Assembly: GCA_963836205.1 (NCBI GenBank)
Contig: CAWIIV010000023.1
Span: 1 to 64,000 of the forward strand
Reading direction: 5' to 3'
DNA: 64,000 bases
Source of the DNA: an uncultured Acidimicrobiia bacterium
GTDB lineage: Bacteria; Actinomycetota; Acidimicrobiia; Acidimicrobiales; AC-14
A program made the position numbers and the translations under genes. This document shows, piece after piece, positions 16,958 through 28,646 of this stretch; positions within the stretch are counted from its first letter, which is position 1; each line of letters starts with the position of its first letter. The notes beneath the pieces were generated by a model, which saw only the letters and a list, made by a program, of their open reading frames with translations, was not told the origin of the DNA and did not search any database.

Positions 16958-19900
16958 TCACGAGTCGGAGGGACCCCCACCATCCGCGGCACCCCGCTGC
17001 TCGATCCGACGCATCACGGTGATGAGGACCGCCGTATCGGCGGAGTCGAGACCTTCCCATTCGACATCGGCGGCGCCGTCGGCGAGCTGGCGTAGGCGGG
17101 CGGCGAGAGCCGTCCAGCCTTTCTCGGCACCCTCGTCGAGGCTGGCTGCGACCTCGGTGGCGACTTCCTCGAGCGCCGGCGCGAGGGGGGTGCCGGCCCG
17201 GCGGGCGGCCGCGATCGCGGCCACTGCGTCTAGTAGGGGGGCCCAATCTTCGGGGGCGGGATCGGGCTCGACCTCGCCGGCAAGGGCGGCCAGGGCCCGG
17301 GATACGATGGTGGTGTCGATCGGATCGAGGCCCTCGCCGAGGAGTGAGGGGTCACGTTCGCCGTCGGAGACGCGGCTCAGGCGCTCGGCCAGTGACCTCC
17401 AGTCGGGCTGCTCGGACCGTCGTGCGAGCTCGGCGTCGAGATGGGCCCGGGCGTAGGTGTTGCCGGAACTGGCGGCGACAAGCAGGGCCAGAGTGGGTTC
17501 CCAGCCGGCAATCTCGAAGGCGTAGAGCGCCTCGACCGGCAGTTGCCGGGCGTCATCGATGACGGTGGCCAGGACATGGGTGCCGTCGCCCCCAAGAGCC
17601 TCGACCAGGGCTCGGAATTGGACCCCATCGACAACCTCGACAGCCAGGCACAGCTCGTCGAAGCTGGCCGGGGCGCTGACGCCGGAAGCGAGCTGGCGGG
17701 CGACAACGGCCACATCGGAGGGATAGTCGCCGTGGCCGGTGAGCAGGCTCAGCATTGTCGAGGCCAAACGGTGGCCGAGGCTCGCCCCCTCCCCGCCCCC
17801 TCGATCCAGGTAGTTGGCCAGGTTGTAGTGCGAGACGGCCACCTCCCTGGGCCCGGGCCGCAGGTACTTGTAGCGCAGAGCCCGACGCTCGAGGACGACG
17901 GCCTGGGGGCCGAAGCCCTGCTTGTCGGCGACATCGGCTTGGGCGCAGAGGCACTGTCCGAGGAGGTCGAAGGCGTCGTGGCGCTCGAACACAACCCGGC
18001 AGTCGGCGAGCACAGCGCTCGTCTCGGCAATGCGGCCGAGACGCAGGAGGGGTCCGTAAGCGTTGAAGAGGGCGCTGGCCCGTTCGAGCTCCGGAGCGTC
18101 GCGGTCCTGTTCGCTCGCGACGACACGCTCGAGCCAGGCCAGTGCCTCCTGCCAGCGGCCGAGGTCGGCGGCGGCTTGCCGTGCTGTGTCGAACAGCATC
18201 TCCCGCACGTTCCAGGGGTTGACCGCCTCGTTGTCGGTGGGCGGATCGGGCAGCTCCCCGAGGTGCTCGGCCGACCGGGTGGCCTCGTCCAGAACCCGCT
18301 CGTATTGGCCGAGGGCGCGCAGGACCTGGAGACGCTTGATCTGGTTGAGAAGCTGGGTCCAGGGGCCGAGGCCGGCGGCCCGAATGTGGCCCGTAGTACG
18401 ATCGATCACGTCCAGGGTCTCCCGATATCGGCCCTGCGCCATGAGCAGGTTTGCCAAGTCGCTAGAGGTGCCCGCCGCCAGTTGGTGGCGGCCGGCGGCG
18501 GCGGCTTCGTCGTCCGCCTCGACCCGGCGCATGAGTCTTTCTGCCTCGGTCGGGTCGATATCCCGGAGGGCCCTGGCGAGTACACCCAGCGCGAGTAGCT
18601 CGGCCTCGGTGCCGACGGCCTTGGTGGCGATGTGGCGCAGCTGGCGGGCGCCGTCCGCCCGTCCCGCCGGGGAGGGATCCCGTAGGAGCACCTCCTCCAG
18701 CGCGGCCTGGGCCCTCATCCAGTCCCGCAGCCGGATGAAGTAGATGGCACCTTGGCGGGCGGCGTGGATGACCCATCCGGTGGTGGGCTGGCCTGCGGCC
18801 TCGTCGGCGAGGGCCTGTTGCAGGGTCGCTCCCCAGGCTGCGGCCAGCTCGGTGTCGACGGCGGCGGCGACCTCCTCAGGGGTGGCGGCAGCCACCGTCT
18901 CGGCCACGAGGGGGTGGATGGTGAAGGAACTGCCGCCGGGGTCGGCCTCGACTAGGGCCGCCGCCATCAGGGCCTGGAGCACGGGGCCGGGCTCGGGGGC
19001 GGGCTCGGGCCGTCCCAGGCGCCGCCACAGGTCCGCCCAGTTGACCCGAACCGTCTCAGGATCGCGATCGGCGGCGTCGGCCCGGACCAGGAACTGGAGC
19101 ATCAGCACGGCTGCCTCGTCGAGGCCGGCCAGGGCCTGGTTGGCCCAGGAGCCGACCAGGGCCACGTAGCCCGCCACCTTGTCGACCCCACGCCCGGCGG
19201 CGGTCAGGAAGGCCGAGGGGTCGACGCCCTGTTGTTGCCACTGCTGGGCCGCATCGGCCAGCATGGCATCCAGCACCGGTCCGGTGCCGACCTGGGCGTT
19301 GGCCAGCTCCAGCAGCTTGGGGTGCCCGCCGGTGGCCTCCAGCACCGCCCGCACCAGGGCCGGGCCGCTGTCCCGGGTGGCCACCGTCTCCCCCTTCAGC
19401 AGGCGGGACAGGTTGGGCAGCTGGCGGGCCAGCAGCACCGCCTCGTGGGGGCCGAGGGCGTGGACGGCCTCCACCGCCAGCCCGTCGAGGCCGGTCGGGG
19501 GCCGGCGGGAGGTGAGCACCACCCGGCCCCGGCCCGGGTGGGTCACCAGGGCGGTGACGAGGGCCTTCCATCTCGGGTCGAGCCAGGACCCCTGGGCCGA
19601 CAGCAGCGACTCGACGTTGTCGAGCACCACCAGCACCGAGGTGTTCTCCATGGCCTCGCTGATCTGCTCGGCCAGGGCTTCGATCTGGTCGAGCTTGTCG
19701 GCCTTACCGGCCAGGGGCAGCCTCAGGGCGGTATCGAGGCGCCCGGCCAGCTTGCCCAGGGCGTCGGCCGCCTCCTTGTCGGTGCCGGTGCCCTCGTTGG
19801 GGCAGCGGCACCACACCAGCTCGGCGAAGTTGCCCCGCTGGCCGTAGGCCAGCTCCAGCGCACAGGCGGTCTTGCCCGCTCCGGCCATGCCGTGCAGCAC

Positions 19901-21172
19901 CACCCCCCGCTGGGGGCTGTGGCGGGCCAGGGCGGCGTTGGCCCGGGTCATGACCGCCACCCGGCCCACGAAGCGGGCCGGCTCGGCGTCGAAGCCGGCC
20001 ATCTTGAGGTCGGTCTGGGGGGTCCCCTCCGGCGGGGCCAGGTGCAGGGCGCCCGCCGCGGGGCCGAAGACGGCGGGGGTGAAGGCGGCCAGCGCGGGGG
20101 CGGCCGCGGTGGGGGGGAACGTGACTGAGCGCTCAAGGGCCCAGGCGGTGGCGGCGGCGGTGTCCTTGCCCTTGTCCCACAGGCCCCGGAACAGGGCCAG
20201 GCCGAAGGCGATGGCGAAGTCGTCGACCACCGGGTAGCGCATGGCCACCACCGTGGTCTCGGCCCTGTCCATCACCTCCAGGGCCAGGCCGTGGCTGGCC
20301 CCCACCGTGGGCTCGGGGGCCAGGTCGTGGGCCTCGACGTCCATGTCCTTGAGGGTCTGGGCCACCACGAAGGCGCCGCTGGAGCAGGCCGACAGGCTCA
20401 CCAGCTTGAGCCGGTGGCGGGCCTTGCGCAGCCACTTCACCAGCTCGGCGGTGTCGACCACGGTGGGCTTGCCGGCCTCGTCCTCCAGCATCAGGCGGCC
20501 GGGCTCGCCGTGGCCGGCGAAGTGGACCACGTCCCAGCCCTCGTCCTCGTCGAGGGCCTCCCGCAGGCGCTCGGCGGTGGCCCCGTATTGCAGCACCCGC
20601 AGGTCCAGGGCCCGGGGTGTGCCCCCGCCCGCCACTTCGGCCACCAGCTCGCCCAGGCCCTTGCGCTCCCGGCGCAGGTCGAGCAGGGACTGGCCGGCTG
20701 GGACGGAGAACACGGCCAGGACCCGCAGGCGCTCGCCGACGGGGTCCTTCGCCACCACCTCCTGGCCCTCGAAGGAGCCGGCGAAGGCCACCCCGTGGGT
20801 GACCAGGTACTCGCCCCCCACCCGGGCCACCCCCAGGGGCAGGCCCAGCAGCCACGGCGCGGAGGCGGGGACCAGCACCGACACCGCCACCGGCGCCCGA
20901 TCGGCCAGGATCGCGGCCAGCGGGCCCAGCACCTTGTCGGCCGTCCAGTCCCCCACCTGGGCCACCAGCTTCTCCTCCGAGCCCAGCTGGTCGGCGGGGT
21001 CGAGGTGGGTGGACAGGCCGGTGGGCAGGTCGGCCAGGGCCTGCCACTCCCACGAGGACACCTGGACGCCCACCTGATGGTGGGCGATCAACTTGTCGCC
21101 AGGACCGAGGAGCCGCCACAGCCACGAGCCCCGCCCCCCCACCTCGCTCGCCACCAGCCGCAAACCCGCCAT
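16958..21172 (-). CDS. CHAT (caspase-like) - STAND/NB-ARC-like NTPase - TPR protein, copy 1 (1404 aa)
   Basis: Catalytic VVHFAGHG and LSACSSG; Walker A HGMAGAGKT, Walker B LVVLDNVE, LTSRR, GGHPKLL; TPR-like helices. Confidence 0.9.
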   Translation of the reverse strand: MAGLRLVASEVGGRGSWLWRLLGPGDKLIAHHQVGVQVSSWEWQALADLPTGLSTHLDPADQLGSEEKLVAQVGDWTADKVLGPLAAILADRAPVAVSVLVPASAPWLLGLPLGVARVGGEYLVTHGVAFAGSFEGQEVVAKDPVGERLRVLAVFSVPAGQSLLDLRRERKGLGELVAEVAGGGTPRALDLRVLQYGATAERLREALDEDEGWDVVHFAGHGEPGRLMLEDEAGKPTVVDTAELVKWLRKARHRLKLVSLSACSSGAFVVAQTLKDMDVEAHDLAPEPTVGASHGLALEVMDRAETTVVAMRYPVVDDFAIAFGLALFRGLWDKGKDTAAATAWALERSVTFPPTAAAPALAAFTPAVFGPAAGALHLAPPEGTPQTDLKMAGFDAEPARFVGRVAVMTRANAALARHSPQRGVVLHGMAGAGKTACALELAYGQRGNFAELVWCRCPNEGTGTDKEAADALGKLAGRLDTALRLPLAGKADKLDQIEALAEQISEAMENTSVLVVLDNVESLLSAQGSWLDPRWKALVTALVTHPGRGRVVLTSRRPPTGLDGLAVEAVHALGPHEAVLLARQLPNLSRLLKGETVATRDSGPALVRAVLEATGGHPKLLELANAQVGTGPVLDAMLADAAQQWQQQGVDPSAFLTAAGRGVDKVAGYVALVGSWANQALAGLDEAAVLMLQFLVRADAADRDPETVRVNWADLWRRLGRPEPAPEPGPVLQALMAAALVEADPGGSSFTIHPLVAETVAAATPEEVAAAVDTELAAAWGATLQQALADEAAGQPTTGWVIHAARQGAIYFIRLRDWMRAQAALEEVLLRDPSPAGRADGARQLRHIATKAVGTEAELLALGVLARALRDIDPTEAERLMRRVEADDEAAAAGRHQLAAGTSSDLANLLMAQGRYRETLDVIDRTTGHIRAAGLGPWTQLLNQIKRLQVLRALGQYERVLDEATRSAEHLGELPDPPTDNEAVNPWNVREMLFDTARQAAADLGRWQEALAWLERVVASEQDRDAPELERASALFNAYGPLLRLGRIAETSAVLADCRVVFERHDAFDLLGQCLCAQADVADKQGFGPQAVVLERRALRYKYLRPGPREVAVSHYNLANYLDRGGGEGASLGHRLASTMLSLLTGHGDYPSDVAVVARQLASGVSAPASFDELCLAVEVVDGVQFRALVEALGGDGTHVLATVIDDARQLPVEALYAFEIAGWEPTLALLVAASSGNTYARAHLDAELARRSEQPDWRSLAERLSRVSDGERDPSLLGEGLDPIDTTIVSRALAALAGEVEPDPAPEDWAPLLDAVAAIAAARRAGTPLAPALEEVATEVAASLDEGAEKGWTALAARLRQLADGAADVEWEGLDSADTAVLITVMRRIEQRGAADGGGPSDS

Positions 21173-23126
21173 TGGTAGTCAGGGGCGCGTTGCCGGCAAG
21201 GCCAGCACGTTTCCCCATCCCCCTTTCAATCCGTACGTGCGGTTTTCCCGCATACGGCTTTCCGACGATCTTCTGGACATGGTTACGACGCCTTCGGGTA
21301 GCGAATGGTGCCCATGAGCTGATGCAGGCCCTGGCCGTGGAACCAGGTGCGGGTCCAGCAGTCTGCCTGGCCTGCCCGTAGGTTGCGGCCCCGCTTCTTG
21401 ATGAGCAAGCGCTTGAGCCGCCACACGACGTGTCGGTCGAGGGAGACGAACTTATTCGCCGCGTTGCCGGTGCGGAAGTAGTTGCCCCACCCCCGCAGGA
21501 ACAGGTTGAGGTCGTAGATCACGTCCTCCAACTCCATGCCGACCCGGTTCCGGCCGGTGAGGGCCTTGACCCGCTGTCGTGCCCGCTTCATCGACCGCTG
21601 CGACGGCCAGCGGTGGAGGTAGTAGCGGATGACCCGCTGCTGTTCCCACAACCGGCCCGACATGCGGGCGTGAAGATGACAACCCAGGAAGTCGAAGCCC
21701 TCCTTGCCCTCCCGGAGGTCGACCACACGGGTCTTGTCCGGGTGCAGGCTCAGGCCGAGATCACCCAGCAGGGCCGCCGCCCTGGCCTGGGCCGTCTCGG
21801 CCTGGCTGCGGGTCGTGCACAGCACCACGAAGTCGTCCGCGTAACGGACGAGCTCGCCGGTGCCGGACTCGGCCCAGGACCGGTCGAAGGCGTGCAGGTA
21901 GATGTTGGCCAGCAGCGGGGAGATGACCCCGCCCTGGGGCGTGCCCGTGACCGTCTCGGAGCGCACCCCCTCGACCAGCACCCCGGCACGCAGCCACTGG
22001 CGGATGAGCTTGAGCACCCGCCGGTCCGACACACGCTCGCCGACCAGTGACAGCAGCCTGTCGTGGTCGATCTGGCCGAAGAAGTCGCGGATGTCGGCCT
22101 CGAAGACGAACTGCCGTCCTCGGGGGAAGGACACCCGGATGGCTTCCAGGGCGTCGGTGGCCGACCGCTTCGGGCGGAACCCGAAGCTCTGGGGCAGGAA
22201 ATCGGCCTCGAAGATGGGTTCGAGGACGATCTTGGCTGCCGCCTGGCACACCCGGTCGCGCACGGTGGGGATGCCCAGGGGCCGCATCCGGCCGTCGGGC
22301 TTGGGGATCTCCACCCGCCGAACAGGCGACGGGCGGTAGGTGCCTGCACGGAGGTCACGGGAAAGCTCGTCGAGCACGCGCCCGACCCCGTAGTCCTCCA
22401 CCGCCTCCAGGGTCAGTCGATCGACCCCGGCGGCGCCACGATTGGCTCGCACCCGCTCCCACGCCGTCCACAGCACGTCACTGCGGTGGATTCGGTCGAA
22501 CAGGGCGTGGAAGCGGCGACCCGGAGACTGCTTGGCCGCAGCCCATAGCCGGTTCTGGAGTTTCGCACGTTGTCGGTGGGCGGCTGCCCGCCGGGGGAGT
22601 TGGGCCGGGCGTTCCCGGCCATGCCCTGGCGCTTACTTCCGTCTCCGGCGTGACCGAAGTCGGGGCCCTTCCCTCCCGCCGGGTTCATCCCGGCGATCAG
22701 CGGTACTACGACCCCGTCGGACTCCCGCTGCGCTCCGCTCGATTTCACCACTGGCTTATACGAGCGGTCTTTGCTGACGAGGCTGCGCAGACGGGTCTCT
22801 CCTGTTCCGAACCTGACCGTGCGTACGTGCCGCTCCCCGTACCCCGAGGGGACCCGACCAGGGGCGTGTCCGGAACGCCAGTCGGTCGGACGTGGCCTTC
22901 GCCGTGACATGAGCGGCTCGGCTCCCCCGTTGTGCGTTTGACGAGGCTGCAGGACTCGCGCCTGGTGGCACTACGGCCCGCACGCTTGCTCCCTCCAAAG
23001 AGGCTCTTGACGCCCCGCTCAGCCCGCCGCCTCTCGGCGACGAACCGGGGCCTGCTACCGGGCTCTCCGGCGATTACCCGGGCGGGACTCGCACCCGCTG
23101 GTCTGGTCCAGTTCTCAGGACGCAAC
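21171..23126 (-). mobile_element. Group II intron inserted in the start codon of CHAT copy 1
   Basis: 5' end (G)TTGCG at 23126; domain V AAGCCGTATGCGGGAAAACCGCACGTACGGATT (21228-21260); 3' end ...CTACCAAT; internal RT ORF; removal restores a sequence matching the uninterrupted copy-2 start. Confidence 0.92.
21283..22622 (-). CDS. ltrA: Group II intron reverse transcriptase/maturase (no En domain); 1-nt deletion near 22562
   Basis: [55 protein letters not shown], domain X GWGNYF. Confidence 0.93.
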
Positions 23127-23172
23127 ATGGGCAGGACGATACCGGGGCCGGGGAACGAGCGCCGGGCATCTT

Positions 23173-24111
23173 TTAGCCCAGGGTGCCCAGCTCCGCGGTC
23201 AGGGTGAAACGGATCGGCTGACAGCCCGACACCGGCAGCACGACCAGGTCCCACGGGCCGGCGGTGCGCTCGCCCGCGATCAAAAGGGACTCGACCCGGT
23301 GCAGGTCACATCCGCCGCCGAGGCGTGAACCCAACGTCTCGATGCCCAGTGGCGTCATGGAGACGACGACGGGGACCGGCTCGCTGAGCGCAGGCTTTGG
23401 AACCGGCTTGGGCTCAACCTTGCCCCCGATGCCGTAGAGGGTAAGCGCCAGGCCTGTGGCGGCAGCCATGCCCCCCAACACCACGACCACGATGCCTCGG
23501 TTGAATTGCGTGCGGGCTCTCTCGAATCGTGCGACCCGGAGAAGGCCGTCGAGGGCGCGCTCGTGGCTGCGGAGGGTGCCCGACACCGCTTGGTGGGCGC
23601 GCTCGTTCCTCGCCCGAGACTCCGGGCTTTGGGACTGGGCGGCGGCGTTGGCGGCGGTCCTGATCGCGGCGAGACGGAGGTTGGCGATGGCGCTACGAAG
23701 GCTGTCCGGATCGGAGATCCCATCCGGGAGGAAGTCGCCGGGATGGTCGGCGAGGCCGCTCTCAAGCCGGCCAAGGCCGAAGAACGTCTGGCGGATCGGA
23801 CCCTCGCGTCGAGCCCGCAGTTGGTAAGCGAAGACCGCCCGGGGGACGAGGACGCTGGCCGTCGACGCGAACACGCCGGCCACCCCGGCGAGGGCGATCG
23901 CGCCGCCGGCGATCACATAGGCCAGCCTCCCGGGGGCGATGTCGCCGATACCAGCCAGGGGCGCGGTGCCGGCGATGACGGCCCCCACCGCCCCGAAGGC
24001 CACCACCAACCACTTGGCGACGTCTCGGTACCGGTCGACCGCCTCCGACCACTGGTCGGCACCCGTTCCCTCCGGGGCCGCGTCCGAGGGAGGAACAGGA
24101 GCGGTGGTCAC
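23173..24111 (-). CDS. Three-TM membrane protein, Pycsar-effector-like topology
   Basis: GTG overlapping the upstream TGA; TM1 (KWLVVAFGAVGAVIAG), TM2 ending VLVPR, helical linker, TM3 (GIVVVVLGGMAAATGLALTLYG). Confidence 0.7.
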   Translation of the reverse strand: MTTAPVPPSDAAPEGTGADQWSEAVDRYRDVAKWLVVAFGAVGAVIAGTAPLAGIGDIAPGRLAYVIAGGAIALAGVAGVFASTASVLVPRAVFAYQLRARREGPIRQTFFGLGRLESGLADHPGDFLPDGISDPDSLRSAIANLRLAAIRTAANAAAQSQSPESRARNERAHQAVSGTLRSHERALDGLLRVARFERARTQFNRGIVVVVLGGMAAATGLALTLYGIGGKVEPKPVPKPALSEPVPVVVSMTPLGIETLGSRLGGGCDLHRVESLLIAGERTAGPWDLVVLPVSGCQPIRFTLTAELGTLG

Positions 24112-24374
24112 ATCCGGACTACCCCGGGCCCTCCGCCACCAGGCGGATCCCCGGGATCTTCTGCGTCGGGGAAGTCCCCGGGCTCGAGCCACTCTCCGAG
24201 CACCGGATGGAAGATCCACGAGCCTCCGGTGGCAGACACGACCACTTCGTAAGGCGAAGGGCTCGCCGGAAACCATGCGCTGCGGCCCTCCGACCACGTC
24301 CACGAGCGGCCGGTGTTTTCGACGACATCGCCCTCGACCGAGCCAGGTGCCGACGGAGGACGGCGCTCAGCCAT
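24108..24374 (-). CDS. 88-aa Trp-repeat microprotein
   Basis: ATG overlaps the CHAT copy 2 stop and its TGA overlaps the next GTG; two internal VV..TG.SW.W/F......W repeats. Confidence 0.6.
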   Translation of the reverse strand: MAERRPPSAPGSVEGDVVENTGRSWTWSEGRSAWFPASPSPYEVVVSATGGSWIFHPVLGEWLEPGDFPDAEDPGDPPGGGGPGVVRM

Positions 24375-27300
24375 TGGACTCGATTCGACACACCACAGTG
24401 GCGAGGATCGCCGTGTCGATGGGGTCAAGGCCCTCCCAGTCAACGTCGGCGACGCCGTCGGCGAGCAGCCGCAGGCGGACGGCCAGGATCATTCCTTGGG
24501 CAGCAGCCTCGTCGAGGACGGCTCCGACCTCGGAGGCGGTGTCGTCGAGTTCGGGAGTCAGGGGGGTGCCGGCCCGGCGGGCGGTGCCGACGCGAGCCAC
24601 TGCCTCGAGGACGGGCCGCAATCCCTCGGGGGCAGGGTCGACGTCGACCTCCCCGGCAAGCGCGGCCAGCGCCCGGGAGATGACGGCGGTGTCGATGGGG
24701 TCGAGGCCCTCGACGAGGAGAGAGGGGTCACGTTCCCCGCCGGCGACGCGGCCCAGGCGTTCGGCCAGTGACGTCCAGTCGGGCTGCTCGGACCGTCGTG
24801 CGAGCTCGGCTCGAGGTGGGCCCGGGCGTGGGCGTTGCCGGCCCCGGCGGCGAGCACTAGTGCAAGGGTAGGTTCCCAGGCGGTGATCGAGGAGGCGTAG
24901 AGCGCATCCTCCGGCAAGTGCTGGGCCTCGTCGACCACGGCGGCCAGTACCTGATCGCCGCCACCACCGAGGGAATCCACCAGGGCCCGGAAACGGACGC
25001 CATCGACCTCCTCGACAGCGACGCACAGCTCGTCGAAGCTGGCCGGGGCAACGGCACCCGAGGCGAGCTGGCGACCGATAGCCGCCACGTCGGAGGGATA
25101 GTCGCCGTCGCCGGTGAGCAGGCTCAGCATGGTCGCCGCCAGGCGGTGGACGACGCTAGCCGACCCGCCCCCGGGGCCGCGAGCCACATAGTTGGCCAGG
25201 TTGTAGTGCGATACGGCCACTTCTCTCGGGTTGGGTCGCAAGTATTTGTAGCGCAGAGCCCGGCATTCGAGGGCGACGGCCTGGGGGCCGAAGCCCTGGC
25301 TTTGGGCGACATCGGCTTGGGCACTCAGGCAGACTCCGAGGAGGTCGAAGACGTCGTGGCGCTCATACACAGCCCGGCAGGCGGCGAGCACCTCGCTCGC
25401 TTCGGCGATGCGGCCGAGGCGGAGGAGGGGACCGTACGCGTTGAACCGGGTACCCGCCCGCTCTAGCTCAGGGGCGGCGCGGTTCTGCTTGCTGACAACG
25501 ATCCGATCGAGCCAAGCCAGCGCCTCCGGCCAGCGGCGGAGGTCGGTGGCGGTTCGCCGGGCGGTGTCGAACAGCCTCTCTCGCACGCTCCAGGGGTTTA
25601 CCGCCTCGTCGTCGCCGGAGGGGTCGGGCAGCTCCGCCAGGCGCTCGGCCAACCTGCTGGCTTCAGCCAAGACCTCCTCCCGCTGTCCGAGCACTCCCAG
25701 GACTTGGAGCCGCCTGGTCTGGTCCATTACCTGGGTCCACGGGCCGAGTCCGGCGGCCCGGGTATGGCCCGCCTGCCGCTCGATCACATCAAGGGCCTCC
25801 CGGTTCCGGCCCTGGGCCCGGAGAAGGTTGGCCAACCTGGCAGCGGTGCCTGACGCCACTCGGTGGCGACCGCTGGTGGCGGCCTCCGCCTCCACCCGGC
25901 GTAGCAGCGTCTCCGCCTCGGCCGGGTCGGTGTCGATGATGGCTCCGGCGAGCACCCCCAGCGCCAACAGCTCGGCGTCGGTGCCGGCAGCCTCGGCGGC
26001 GATGTGGCGCAGCTGGCGGGCGGCATCGGCCCGGTGGGCGGGGGAGGGATCCCGTCCTAACGCCAGCTCCAGCACGGCCTGCGCCAGCATCCAGTCCTGC
26101 AGCCGGATGAAGTAGGTGGCACCCTGACGGGCGGCGTGGATTACCCATCCAGTCATGGGCTGGCCGGCGGCCTCGTCGGCGAGCGCCCGTCGCAGGGTCG
26201 CATCCCAGGCTGCGGCCAGCTCGGTGTCGGCGGCGGCGGCGACCTCCTCAGGGGTGGCGGCAGCCACCGTCTCGGCCACGAGGGGGTGGATGGTGAAGGA
26301 ACTGCCGCCGGGGTCGGCCTCGACTAGGGCCGCCGCCATCAGGGCCTGGAGCACGGGGCCGGGCTCGGGGGCGGGCTCGGGCCGTCCCAGGCGCCGCCAC
26401 AGGTCCGCCCAGTTGACCCGAACCGTCTCAGGATCGCGATCGGCGGCGTCGGCCCGGACCAGGAACTGGAGCATCAGCACGGCTGCCTCGTCGAGGCCGG
26501 CCAGGGCCTGGTTGGCCCAGGAGCCGACCAGGGCCACGTAGCCCGCCACCTTGTCGACCCCACGCCCGGCGGCGGTCAGGAAGGCCGAGGGGTCGACGCC
26601 CTGTTGTTGCCACTGCTGGGCCGCATCGGCCAGCATGGCATCCAGCACCGGTCCGGTGCCGACCTGGGCGTTGGCCAGCTCCAGCAGCTTGGGGTGCCCG
26701 CCGGTGGCCTCCAGCACCGCCCGCACCAGGGCCGGGCCGCTGTCCCGGGTGGCCACCGTCTCCCCCTTCAGCAGGCGGGACAGGTTGGGCAGCTGGCGGG
26801 CCAGCAGCACCGCCTCGTGGGGGCCGAGGGCGTGGACGGCCTCCACCGCCAGCCCGTCGAGGCCGGTCGGGGGCCGGCGGGAGGTGAGCACCACCCGGCC
26901 CCGGCCCGGGTGGGTCACCAGGGCGGTGACGAGGGCCTTCCATCTCGGGTCGAGCCAGGACCCCTGGGCCGACAGCAGCGACTCGACGTTGTCGAGCACC
27001 ACCAGCACCGAGGTGTTCTCCATGGCCTCGCTGATCTGCTCGGCCAGGGCTTCGATCTGGTCGAGCTTGTCGGCCTTACCGGCCAGGGGCAGCCTCAGGG
27101 CGGTATCGAGGCGCCCGGCCAGCTTGCCCAGGGCGTCGGCCGCCTCCTTGTCGGTGCCGGTGCCCTCGTTGGGGCAGCGGCACCACACCAGCTCGGCGAA
27201 GTTGCCCCGCTGGCCGTAGGCCAGCTCCAGCGCACAGGCGGTCTTGCCCGCTCCGGCCATGCCGTGCAGCACCACCCCCCGCTGGGGGCTGTGGCGGGCC

Positions 27301-28544
27301 AGGGCGGCGTTGGCCCGGGTCATGACCGCCACCCGGCCCACGAAGCGGGCCGGCTCGGCGTCGAAGCCGGCCATCTTGAGGTCGGTCTGGGGGGTCCCCT
27401 CCGGCGGGGCCAGGTGCAGGGCGCCCGCCGCGGGGCCGAAGACGGCGGGGGTGAAGGCGGCCAGCGCGGGGGCGGCCGCGGTGGGGGGGAACGTGACTGA
27501 GCGCTCAAGGGCCCAGGCGGTGGCGGCGGCGGTGTCCTTGCCCTTGTCCCACAGGCCCCGGAACAGGGCCAGGCCGAAGGCGATGGCGAAGTCGTCGACC
27601 ACCGGGTAGCGCATGGCCACCACCGTGGTCTCGGCCCTGTCCATCACCTCCAGGGCCAGGCCGTGGCTGGCCCCCACCGTGGGCTCGGGGGCCAGGTCGT
27701 GGGCCTCGACGTCCATGTCCTTGAGGGTCTGGGCCACCACGAAGGCGCCGCTGGAGCAGGCCGACAGGCTCACCAGCTTGAGCCGGTGGCGGGCCTTGCG
27801 CAGCCACTTCACCAGCTCGGCGGTGTCGACCACGGTGGGCTTGCCGGCCTCGTCCTCCAGCATCAGGCGGCCGGGCTCGCCGTGGCCGGCGAAGTGGACC
27901 ACGTCCCAGCCCTCGTCCTCGTCGAGGGCCTCCCGCAGGCGCTCGGCGGTGGCCCCGTATTGCAGCACCCGCAGGTCCAGGGCCCGGGGTGTGCCCCCGC
28001 CCGCCACTTCGGCCACCAGCTCGCCCAGGCCCTTGCGCTCCCGGCGCAGGTCGAGCAGGGACTGGCCGGCTGGGACGGAGAACACGGCCAGGACCCGCAG
28101 GCGCTCGCCGACGGGGTCCTTCGCCACCACCTCCTGGCCCTCGAAGGAGCAGGCGAAGGCCACCCCGTGGGTGACCAGGTACTCGCCCCCCACCCGGGCC
28201 ACCCCCAGGGGCAGGCCCAGCAGCCACGGCGCCGACGCGGGGACCTGCACCGACACCGCCACCGGCGCCCGGTCGGCCAGGATCGGGGCCAGCGGGCCCA
28301 GCACGTGCTCGGCCGTCCAGTCCCCCACCTGGGCCACCAGCTTCTCCTCCGAGCCCAGCCGGTCGGCGGGGTCGAGGTGGGTGGACAGGCCGGTGGGCAG
28401 GTCGATCAGGGCCTGCCACTCCCAGGATTGGACGTCGACCGCCACCTGGTGGTGGGCGATCAACTTGTCGCCGGGACCGAGGAGGCGCCACAGCCACGAG
28501 CCCGGGCCCCCCACCTCGCTCGCCACCAGCCGCAACCCCGCCAT
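24367..28544 (-). CDS. CHAT-STAND-TPR protein, copy 2; 1-nt deletion near 24810 relative to copy 1
   Basis: Same motifs as copy 1 at offset 7372; the C-terminus continues in ORF 24367-25026. Confidence 0.88.
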
Positions 28545-28646
28545 AGCAACGGACGATACCGGGGCCGGAGAACAAGCGCCGGGCATCTCTCTAGCCCAGG
28601 GTGCCCATCGCCCGTAACGGCTTCCCCGACCGGGAGACTCTGACCC

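Follow-up and report, generated by a model that had tools for sequence, protein, structure and literature searches.

The DNA considered here, referred to below as the window, is the whole of a 64,000-nucleotide (nt) stretch, i.e., positions 1 to 64,000 of contig CAWIIV010000023.1 (assembly GCA_963836205.1), from an uncultured Acidimicrobiia bacterium. Found on its minus strand are two tandem genes, at 16958-21172 and 24558-28544, each encoding a CHAT domain, a STAND-type NTPase, and TPR repeats. The downstream of these two genes is interrupted at its ATG by a group II intron of 1,956 nt (21170-23125, minus strand). It is this intron, its relatives, and particularly the sites into which they have inserted that are the subject of what follows.

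The intron and the gene it interrupts

The product of the interrupted gene has its CHAT domain (PF12770; 45.5 bits, E 8.5e-12) at the N-terminus, with a STAND-type NTPase (AAA_16, NB-ARC) and TPR repeats present as well, plus a match to the NCBIfam family FxSxx_TPR which falls below that family's cut-off. As counted from the terminal ATG of the intron, the open reading frame (ORF) is 1,404 amino acids (aa) in length. The tandem paralogue is without the intron, shares 95% identity across the first 570 bases, and displays the site in unoccupied form: TATCGTCCGTTGCT ATG GCG GGG TTG (28533-28558, minus strand; 0 matches in 100 shuffles), with a TAnnnT box at 8 nt and with T preceding the ATG. No orthologue of the CHAT gene, which might have provided a further empty site, was found in seven genus relatives; the comparison available is the in-window paralogue.

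An initial annotation of this DNA had placed a group II intron at the CHAT start codon, and Rfam, Pfam, and folding agree, with the flanks being as it had quoted them. Excision, as it also had stated, gives ATG GCG GGT TTG, thereby matching the start of the uninterrupted paralogue, and the terminal bases of the intron do put an in-frame ATG before GCG. The features are as follows, all on the minus strand:

21170-23125, group II intron, 1,956 nt, starting UUGCG and ending CUACCAAUG, as based on Rfam matches, other copies, and covariation between exon-binding sites (EBS) and intron-binding sites (IBS)
23126-23128, native ATG start of the CHAT gene, with which the 5' exon ends and which supplies three of the four bases of IBS1
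23136-23141, TATCGT, a -10-like hexamer with a 7-nt gap between it and the ATG that follows, and a putative leaderless-type promoter element
21170-21172, terminal AUG of the intron, in frame and abutting codon 2
16958-21169, 3' exon, i.e., the CHAT-STAND NTPase-TPR gene from codon 2 onward (Pfam CHAT, AAA_16, NB-ARC)
22908-22911, EBS1 (CAUG), pairing with N-R-U-G and located in the hairpin loop of GCCG-CUCAUGUCA-CGGC
22839, EBS3 (C, within GGUA[N]GGG; intron nt 287), its partner being G 21169, with which the 3' exon opens
21231-21257, domain V, from the RF00029 alignment and the fold
21176, presumed branch-point A, bulged from domain VI in the minimum free energy fold and seventh base from the 3' end
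21283-22622, reverse transcriptase (RT)/maturase gene of the intron, split as one A is missing from an A-run near 22560-22563
28542-28558, unoccupied paralogous site, i.e., TATCGT, 8 nt, then ATG and G, from paralogue comparison

Among Rfam families, RF02003 (group II D1-D4-4) matches 22966-23100 at 91 bits versus a gathering score of 49, and RF00029 (domain V/VI) matches 21178-21262 at 37.8 bits, slightly below its gathering score of 40, both on the minus strand. RF02005 matches in part, at 39.2 bits, below its gathering score. The final 93 nt fold into a standard domain V hairpin and a domain VI with bulged A (-37.5 kcal/mol, z -2.97). Present together, that is, are a D1-D4 core, a domain V/VI with bulged A, an RT/maturase ORF in domain IV, and EBS-IBS pairing. 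Group II termini of the form 5' GUGYG and 3' AY, in contrast, are not seen: The window copy starts with UUGCG, and 3' ends in this lineage are AUG or GUG. This is a departure within the group II family rather than a reason for exclusion from it. The initial annotation had described the 5' end as non-canonical, reading it as GUUGCG, which is the case for the window copy, as UUGCG, but not for most relatives, of which 48 of 68 have the canonical GUGCG.

The intron-encoded protein (IEP) is 446 aa in length and consists of RVT_1 (126 bits) and GIIM (60.5 bits) only, i.e., there is no endonuclease domain. It matches TIGR04416 at 416 bits versus a cut-off of 300. The closest solved RT is that of GsI-IIC (222 bits), with LtrA at 155 bits and TeI4h, which we take to be a CL-type RT, at 151 bits. 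In the window copy the IEP is frameshifted, one A having been lost from the A-run near 22560-22563. An extra base at 22560 is present in the contigs of all four public runs described below, though these may be collapsed from other copies, and the frameshift may be an assembly error. Among the five near-identical copies in the source genome (G000), only L002 and L003 possess an intact IEP, one substitution apart and otherwise identical, and this intact protein could act in trans. L004 and L005 have in common a 1-nt insertion along with a cluster of substitutions in the RT domain (intron ~927-964), which splits the IEP.

Junctions and exon recognition

With an ATG at both junctions, sequence alone permits either AT/G...AAT/G or ATG/...AATG/ (slashes marking the junctions), and both placements give the identical spliced product. 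Most likely, as judged from comparisons among sequences, are the junctions ATG/UUGCG...CUACCAAUG/GCG, i.e., 23125-21170. The initial annotation had placed the intron between AT and G (23126-21171), which is one base off but yields the same product. It had supposed as well that an ATG/TTGCG junction would give rise to a frameshifted product, which it does not, since the 3' junction moves by the same base.

Among otherwise identical copies the 5' triplet varies, being ATG at the CHAT, HIT, PIG-L, and deacetylase genes and GTG at the kinase gene, while the 3' AATG is constant. The 5' triplet therefore is exon and the 3' AUG intron. An alternative in which the 5' RTG is found inside the intron is ruled out by this same difference. 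Also ruled out is a 5' boundary at the GTGCG of 23094-23090, as this falls within the conserved domain I motif of RF02003.

Empty sites are seen with MoaB. All seven same-genus orthologues (7/7) are without the intron and read TAC[C/G]AT-N7-GTG (six) or the same ending in ATG (one), followed by codon 2, with the occupied moaB reading GTG-intron-AATG-codon 2. As to the 3' side, the EBS3 column is Watson-Crick complementary to the base following AAUG in 46 of 52 introns, with G-U pairs in three more. This is specific, as the runner-up column reaches 46%, and use of the second exon base as a control finds invariant G columns only. This EBS3-IBS3 covariation indicates that the 3' exon begins after AAUG.

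On the 5' side, pairing between the EBS1 loop CUCAUGUCA and the four exon bases that end at the junction is seen at 66, 67, 66, and 64 of 67 sites, with the next two positions pairing at chance levels (30/67 and 33/67). The fourth EBS1 base covaries with the base preceding the start codon (G/C, A/U, U/A or G, C/G), and introns with a CAC loop are found at GTG codons only (6/6). The exon-binding sites, which the initial annotation had not yet placed, consequently can be given as EBS1 CAUG at 22911-22908 and, by covariation, EBS3 at 22839. Given a branch A seven bases from the end, along with the EBS3 covariation, ATG/UUGCG...CCAAUG/GCG is favoured.

Public sequencing runs (two DNA and two RNA runs, of 20, as Logan contigs) cover only the repeated intron, approximately 21168-23130. 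None of these contigs reaches the CHAT gene on one side or the flank upstream on the other, none has a joint at the splice junction, and none shows an empty-site allele. Being confined to the intron, they are neither for nor against splicing, and are not evidence of local transcription. Contigs from the RNA libraries are 90-99% like the intron and may stem from relatives or from DNA carry-over. One such contig (run X15) joins 21274 to 22895, skipping 1,620 nt that approximate the whole IEP gene, and this could be an ORF-less relative from another organism.

Insertion sites across the lineage

The source genome contains seven full-length copies, the window copy included, and an eighth cut by a contig end. 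Relative to the window copy, four are 99-100% identical and two are 90% identical, with all seven further copies displaying the same ends. Such near identity suggests, at the level of sequence, that the intron has been recently mobile in this genome. The seven full-length copies are located as follows:

L001 (window), at the ATG of the CHAT gene
L002, at a GTG inside a histidine-kinase gene
L003, at the ATG of a HIT protein gene
L004, at the ATG of a PIG-L deacetylase gene
L005, at the ATG of a histone-deacetylase-like gene
L006, at an ATG with only 19 codons after it
L007, at the GTG of moaB

Relatives of the IEP are present in 17 of 61 related genomes, and a scan of one genome per species gave 593, of which the best 80 were kept. 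Cultured carriers are among these, e.g., Embleya sp. NBC_00896, Saccharopolyspora hattusasensis, Sorangium sp. So ce176, Pelomonas dachongensis, and Nannocystis pusilla. In total 99 loci were examined, resulting in 68 distinct 5' sites and 73 distinct 3' sites. Excluded were 16 loci of lowest IEP rank (48-57% identity), such that only L104, L112, and L116 were retained from the 19 loci L102-L120; their introns, i.e., those of the 16, end differently and they are found outside of the clade in the tree described below. Candidate 5' ends in seven of these (L106 is cut by the locus end) are preceded by the triplets GTG, CAC, CAC, GGG, AGA, ACA, and CTC, i.e., there is no start-codon habit. As 5' ends were located by intron sequence only, counts of exon features are independent of how sites were detected.

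At the 68 sites, the 5' exon ends with ATG in 50, GTG in 16, TTG in one, and ATT in one, i.e., ATG or GTG in 66/68, and at 54 sites it is a C that precedes the start codon. A TAnnnT hexamer is found farther upstream, separated from the start codon by 6 nt at 40 sites, 7 nt at 22, and 8 nt at four, hence also at 66/68 sites, with all 28 other offsets together holding four. There are 31 different hexamers, TAGAAT being commonest (11) and TAGnAT the consensus. The 40-nt 5' flanks, by comparison with shuffles, provide no hairpin signal (mean z -0.21; 2/68 below -2).

The intron itself ends, over the 73 3' sites, with ATG in 65, GTG in seven, and ACG in one. At 62/73 of these 3' sites the frame opened by the terminal triplet spans at least 80 aa or continues past the end of the locus, and among downstream proteins that were scanned all 14 of 14 start at the N-terminus of a Pfam family, i.e., within 4-20 residues of the family's first profile position, IlvE excepted as its domain starts later. 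Downstream genes include leuS (LeuRS), trpS (TrpRS), dnaX, mnmE, nadD, smpB, sucA, RsmI, and PdxS. The initial annotation had raised the idea of a start-codon-targeting intron, one for which the flanks of relatives would display the same preference, and both have been borne out. Comparison of these sites strongly supports a start-codon targeting that is much broader than that annotation supposed, i.e., as is seen for the whole lineage rather than for this gene alone.

A quick maximum-likelihood tree, rooted at its midpoint, was obtained for 87 IEPs, with four loci lacking a long match omitted. All 67 of the 67 start-codon IEPs are on one branch (SH-aLRT 88), together with L077, whose contig is too short for the site counts. 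Outside of this branch are 18 other IEPs, L020 among them, with L118 sister to it. As named in sequence records, hosts of the clade are from 10 phyla: Actinomycetota, Chloroflexota, Gemmatimonadota, Melainabacteria (a metagenome-assembled genome), Myxococcota, Pseudomonadota, Planctomycetota, Acidobacteriota, Spirochaetota, and Nitrospirota. In sister lineages (L019, L020, L031, L102-L111) introns end with ...CCUACCUCAC or similar and 5' exons are without a terminal start codon. Insertion at start codons and an AUG at the intron end thus appear together on one branch.

There is some variation within the clade as well. Proteobacterial, myxobacterial, planctomycete, and acidobacterial members (L066-L101) possess, directly after GUGCGUCGUGAC, an extra hairpin of ~45 nt (intron ~13-60) which is missing from actinobacterial members. 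L017 (genome G020) is ~1,615 nt in length owing to an internal deletion of part of domain I and part of the IEP; its site still reads TAGGTT-N6-ATG, with a ligase-like ORF following. The L076 genome, which is small and probably incomplete, has a single PF00579 match, namely the trpS that carries the intron. At L013 (G028:C4), leuS behind the intron shifts frame after 262 codons, either because the gene is broken or because the long-read assembly is in error.

Recognition of leaderless-type starts

In the textbook form of a leaderless promoter, a TAnnnT box stands 6-7 nt ahead of an A or G. That layout is established for Actinobacteria and Deinococcus (cf. PMC4007540). The best explanation of the above, and one we consider probable, is that these introns are a retromobile, endonuclease-less lineage which homes to the boundary between codons 1 and 2 of leaderless-type genes. 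The DNA target then is TAnnnT, 6-8 nt, and N-R-T-G/N, with insertion at the slash. Of this target only five bases are read by the intron's RNA, four via EBS1 (CAUG) and one via EBS3. For the -10 box no pairing partner was found in the intron RNA, and positions just upstream of IBS1 pair at chance.

The box would be the -10 promoter element of the host gene. That it belongs to the host gene follows from its presence in intron-less orthologues. That it is not read by pairing follows from the variability of its inner bases along with the elasticity of its spacing: Identical introns are found at TATCGT, TACCGT, and TAGCGT in G000, and identical introns in genome G028 at TACCAT, TAGAAT, and TAGACT. 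The box presumably is sensed instead by the IEP or by way of the opened promoter. Transcription would start at or beside the AUG, and the inserted intron in that case gains a promoter, with a 5' exon of ~3 nt. Splicing then would rejoin the AUG to codon 2, restoring a leaderless mRNA.

The IBS1 is only 4 bp in length, with three of its bases supplied by the start codon, and the lineage consequently looks adapted to leaderless starts. Such starts may be common in G000 (71% G+C), which has 910 TAnnnT-N6-8-RTG sites, 607 of these opening a frame of at least 100 codons, though long frames arise by chance as well at 71% G+C. The CHAT-STAND-TPR gene appears to have been hit simply because its site fits the target, without there being any protease-specific device.

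The initial annotation had read the CHAT ORF as now being ~2 kb away from its promoter. The geometry is right, but the -10-like box had been overlooked, and with it the rule that this lineage follows, i.e., of insertion just downstream of such a box. Before the terminal AUG of the intron, in the window sequence, there is neither a Shine-Dalgarno sequence nor a -10 box. As the intron closes with a RUG of its own, codon 2 always is preceded by a start codon that is in frame. As apparently essential genes carry the intron, their expression must survive its presence, whether via splicing or via the intron's AUG; the frame change within leuS at L013 limits this argument. A role for the terminal triplet at the level of RNA is also to be considered. 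With an EBS1 loop of CAU, introns end with AUG (48), GUG (2), or ACG (1), while with CAC they end with AUG (2) or GUG (4) and never ACG (0). The terminal RUG tends, in other words, to match EBS1, which hints at some RNA role, e.g., as a mimic of IBS1, besides or instead of that of spare start codon.

A more specific version of the above, one that may be offered only tentatively and that we think will more probably prove wrong than right, is that the intron particle uses the promoter itself as a landmark. At leaderless promoters, that is, the particle would insert by reverse splicing into the non-template strand, where the bubble opened by RNA polymerase and sigma factor has its downstream edge. 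This would explain why the box has the sigma consensus TAnnnT, why the spacer is elastic at 6-8 nt, and why RNA pairing can be limited to five bases. After insertion, transcription of the intron would begin at +1 and pppAUG alone would make up the 5' exon used in splicing, while the terminal AUG or GUG may function as a mimic of IBS1 within the intron or as a start codon in reserve.

Various points weigh against homing to leaderless-type starts. Splicing, the start of transcription, and leaderless status at this locus are all deduced from motifs. A 376-aa ORF without family match (23173-24303) ends 45 nt before the ATG of the interrupted gene, making possible read-through transcripts with a long 5' exon; this ORF precedes only the downstream of the two CHAT-STAND-TPR copies. 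A simple scan of the upstream sequence for the sigma-70 consensus gave 0 promoter-like matches, a null which says little because the scan requires a -35 element. The IEP of the window copy is frameshifted, unless through assembly error, and the tree is the product of a quick search with a midpoint root. Two of the 68 sites are without an exact TAnnnT (TAGCGA and GACAAT). The terminal RUG in 72/73 is partly built in, since the pattern used to find 3' ends contained AATG, with two mismatches allowed. Seven complete downstream ORFs are shorter than 60 aa, with two more sites cut by the locus end. Lastly, many sites are from related genomes and hence are partly non-independent.

Of the alternatives to recognition of the box, the one that survives best is survivorship. 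Here insertion could occur at any N-R-T-G/N, with the box never recognized and with introns persisting only at leaderless starts, where they are transcribed, are spliced, and do the least harm. Consistent with this is that RNA pairing spans only five bases. So too is the resemblance of the hexamers to real host promoters, which, as they are retained in intron-less orthologues, must pre-exist in the host. Survivorship as the sole explanation nonetheless is improbable. G000 has 32,567 C-RTG-G sites, i.e., sites competent for pairing, of which 166 are boxed, and yet all five of five near-identical, recent copies have landed where there is a box, the one in the histidine-kinase gene included. By simple arithmetic the chance of this is ~3e-12, and something besides RNA pairing therefore senses the box. 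All eight copies in G000 are at an exact or near box, the one before a 19-aa ORF included. Furthermore, over the 68 sites no copy is without a box or near-box, whereas neutral intergenic insertions should linger for a while.

Distinctly less credible is that the intron is a member of a lineage already published, the IIB1 introns of Michel et al. 2007 (e.g., Avi.groEL and EcKTE56.groEL). As described in passages of Gomes 2025 (PMC12584367), those introns colonise initiation and termination codons of housekeeping genes, and possess a CL1 RT with C-terminal endonuclease domain along with a 5'-subterminal insertion of 300-700 nt. Their targeting process is there said to be unknown, and group II introns in general are described as having no promoter of their own. 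The habit is a common one, i.e., single-base precision at the translation signals of housekeeping genes, including substitution of the intron's own signal codon for that of the host: UAA to UAG with groEL introns, and AUG or GUG for the native start here. The ~45-nt hairpin near the 5' end of proteobacterial and myxobacterial members might be taken as a further likeness. By that published description, however, the present introns are set apart in having no endonuclease domain, a compact ribozyme, an EBS1 of 4 nt, and an EBS3 of 1 nt. The domain I conserved motif begins ~25 nt from the intron's 5' end and any extra piece is ~45 nt at most, as compared with 300-700 nt, and the solved RT closest to the IEP is of IIC type rather than TeI4h. 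Absence of an endonuclease domain together with the compact ribozyme makes for a poor fit. Insertion here, moreover, is into start codons only, always right after the third base, with a -10-like box fixed upstream. The groEL intron at a stop codon, which the initial annotation had cited as precedent, thus comes from another lineage (IIB1, with endonuclease domain and 300-700-nt 5' insertion), at least as the passages of Gomes 2025 present it.

That annotation also had offered a splicing-dependent switch on a toxic protease, i.e., that the host has domesticated the intron to silence the CHAT protein until intron removal. One can see the appeal, as a CHAT/caspase-like domain is fused to a STAND NTPase, the intron separates the gene from its presumed promoter, and the rebuilt ATG has no Shine-Dalgarno sequence before it. 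The same intron nevertheless is found in the same genome at unrelated genes (HIT, PIG-L, deacetylase, MoaB, and kinase), and its relatives elsewhere at leuS, trpS, and dnaX. Nor is there a CHAT orthologue in the seven genus relatives, the highly similar in-window paralogue is without an intron, and the maturase gene of the window copy is frameshifted. A switch specific to this gene consequently is very hard to credit.

Weakest is that TAnnnT is an IBS2-type element read through EBS2 pairing, for while the five near-identical G000 copies all have TAnCGT, the inner bases vary among sites of identical introns in G028 and over 31 hexamers across the lineage, spacing is 6-8 nt for one and the same intron, and the two positions adjoining IBS1 pair at chance, such that this view can be set aside as extremely improbable.

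Homing to leaderless-type starts can be placed as well relative to group IIC. Similar are the endonuclease-less IEP, with GsI-IIC as closest RT, the very short EBS1-IBS1 (4-bp IBS1), and the existence of a second, unpaired landmark upstream of the insertion point. Group IIC introns, however, insert after rho-independent terminators or attC hairpins, i.e., behind genes, whereas here the landmark is a TAnnnT box, flanks fold like their shuffles, and insertion is inside of the gene at codon 1/2. The domain V and D1-D4 Rfam match, in addition, are not of IIC type. Endonuclease-less varieties known as class F and g1-g4, having RT/maturase ORFs without D/En domains, have been described (Toro and Martinez-Abarca 2013, PMC3552965). 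Their hosts overlap with those seen here (Actinobacteria, Sorangium, Myxococcus, and a Rickettsiales symbiont), the passages of PMC3552965 in question being silent on insertion sites. No description of targeting of a -10 box or of leaderless start codons was found in the full-text literature, subscription journals and supplements being outside the scope of that search. What is new here is the association with a promoter box and a terminal start codon, as found within a known kind of group II intron.

Three target specificities of group II introns are named in passages of Zimmerly and Semper 2015, i.e., homing sites, terminators, and attC, and the leaderless-type start, if truly what is targeted, would be a fourth. 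If in addition the promoter serves as landmark, then this would be a retroelement that secures its own promoter. Homing to such starts would raise the questions of how a ribonucleoprotein finds a promoter, whether a three-base 5' exon allows splicing, how expression of essential leaderless genes (leuS, trpS, dnaX) is maintained when an insert of 2 kb follows the AUG, and why the intron ends in a start codon. A target of which only five bases are read by RNA, in combination with a separate landmark, may be of interest to gene targeting. The lineage, lastly, would mark leaderless genes in uncultured bacteria.

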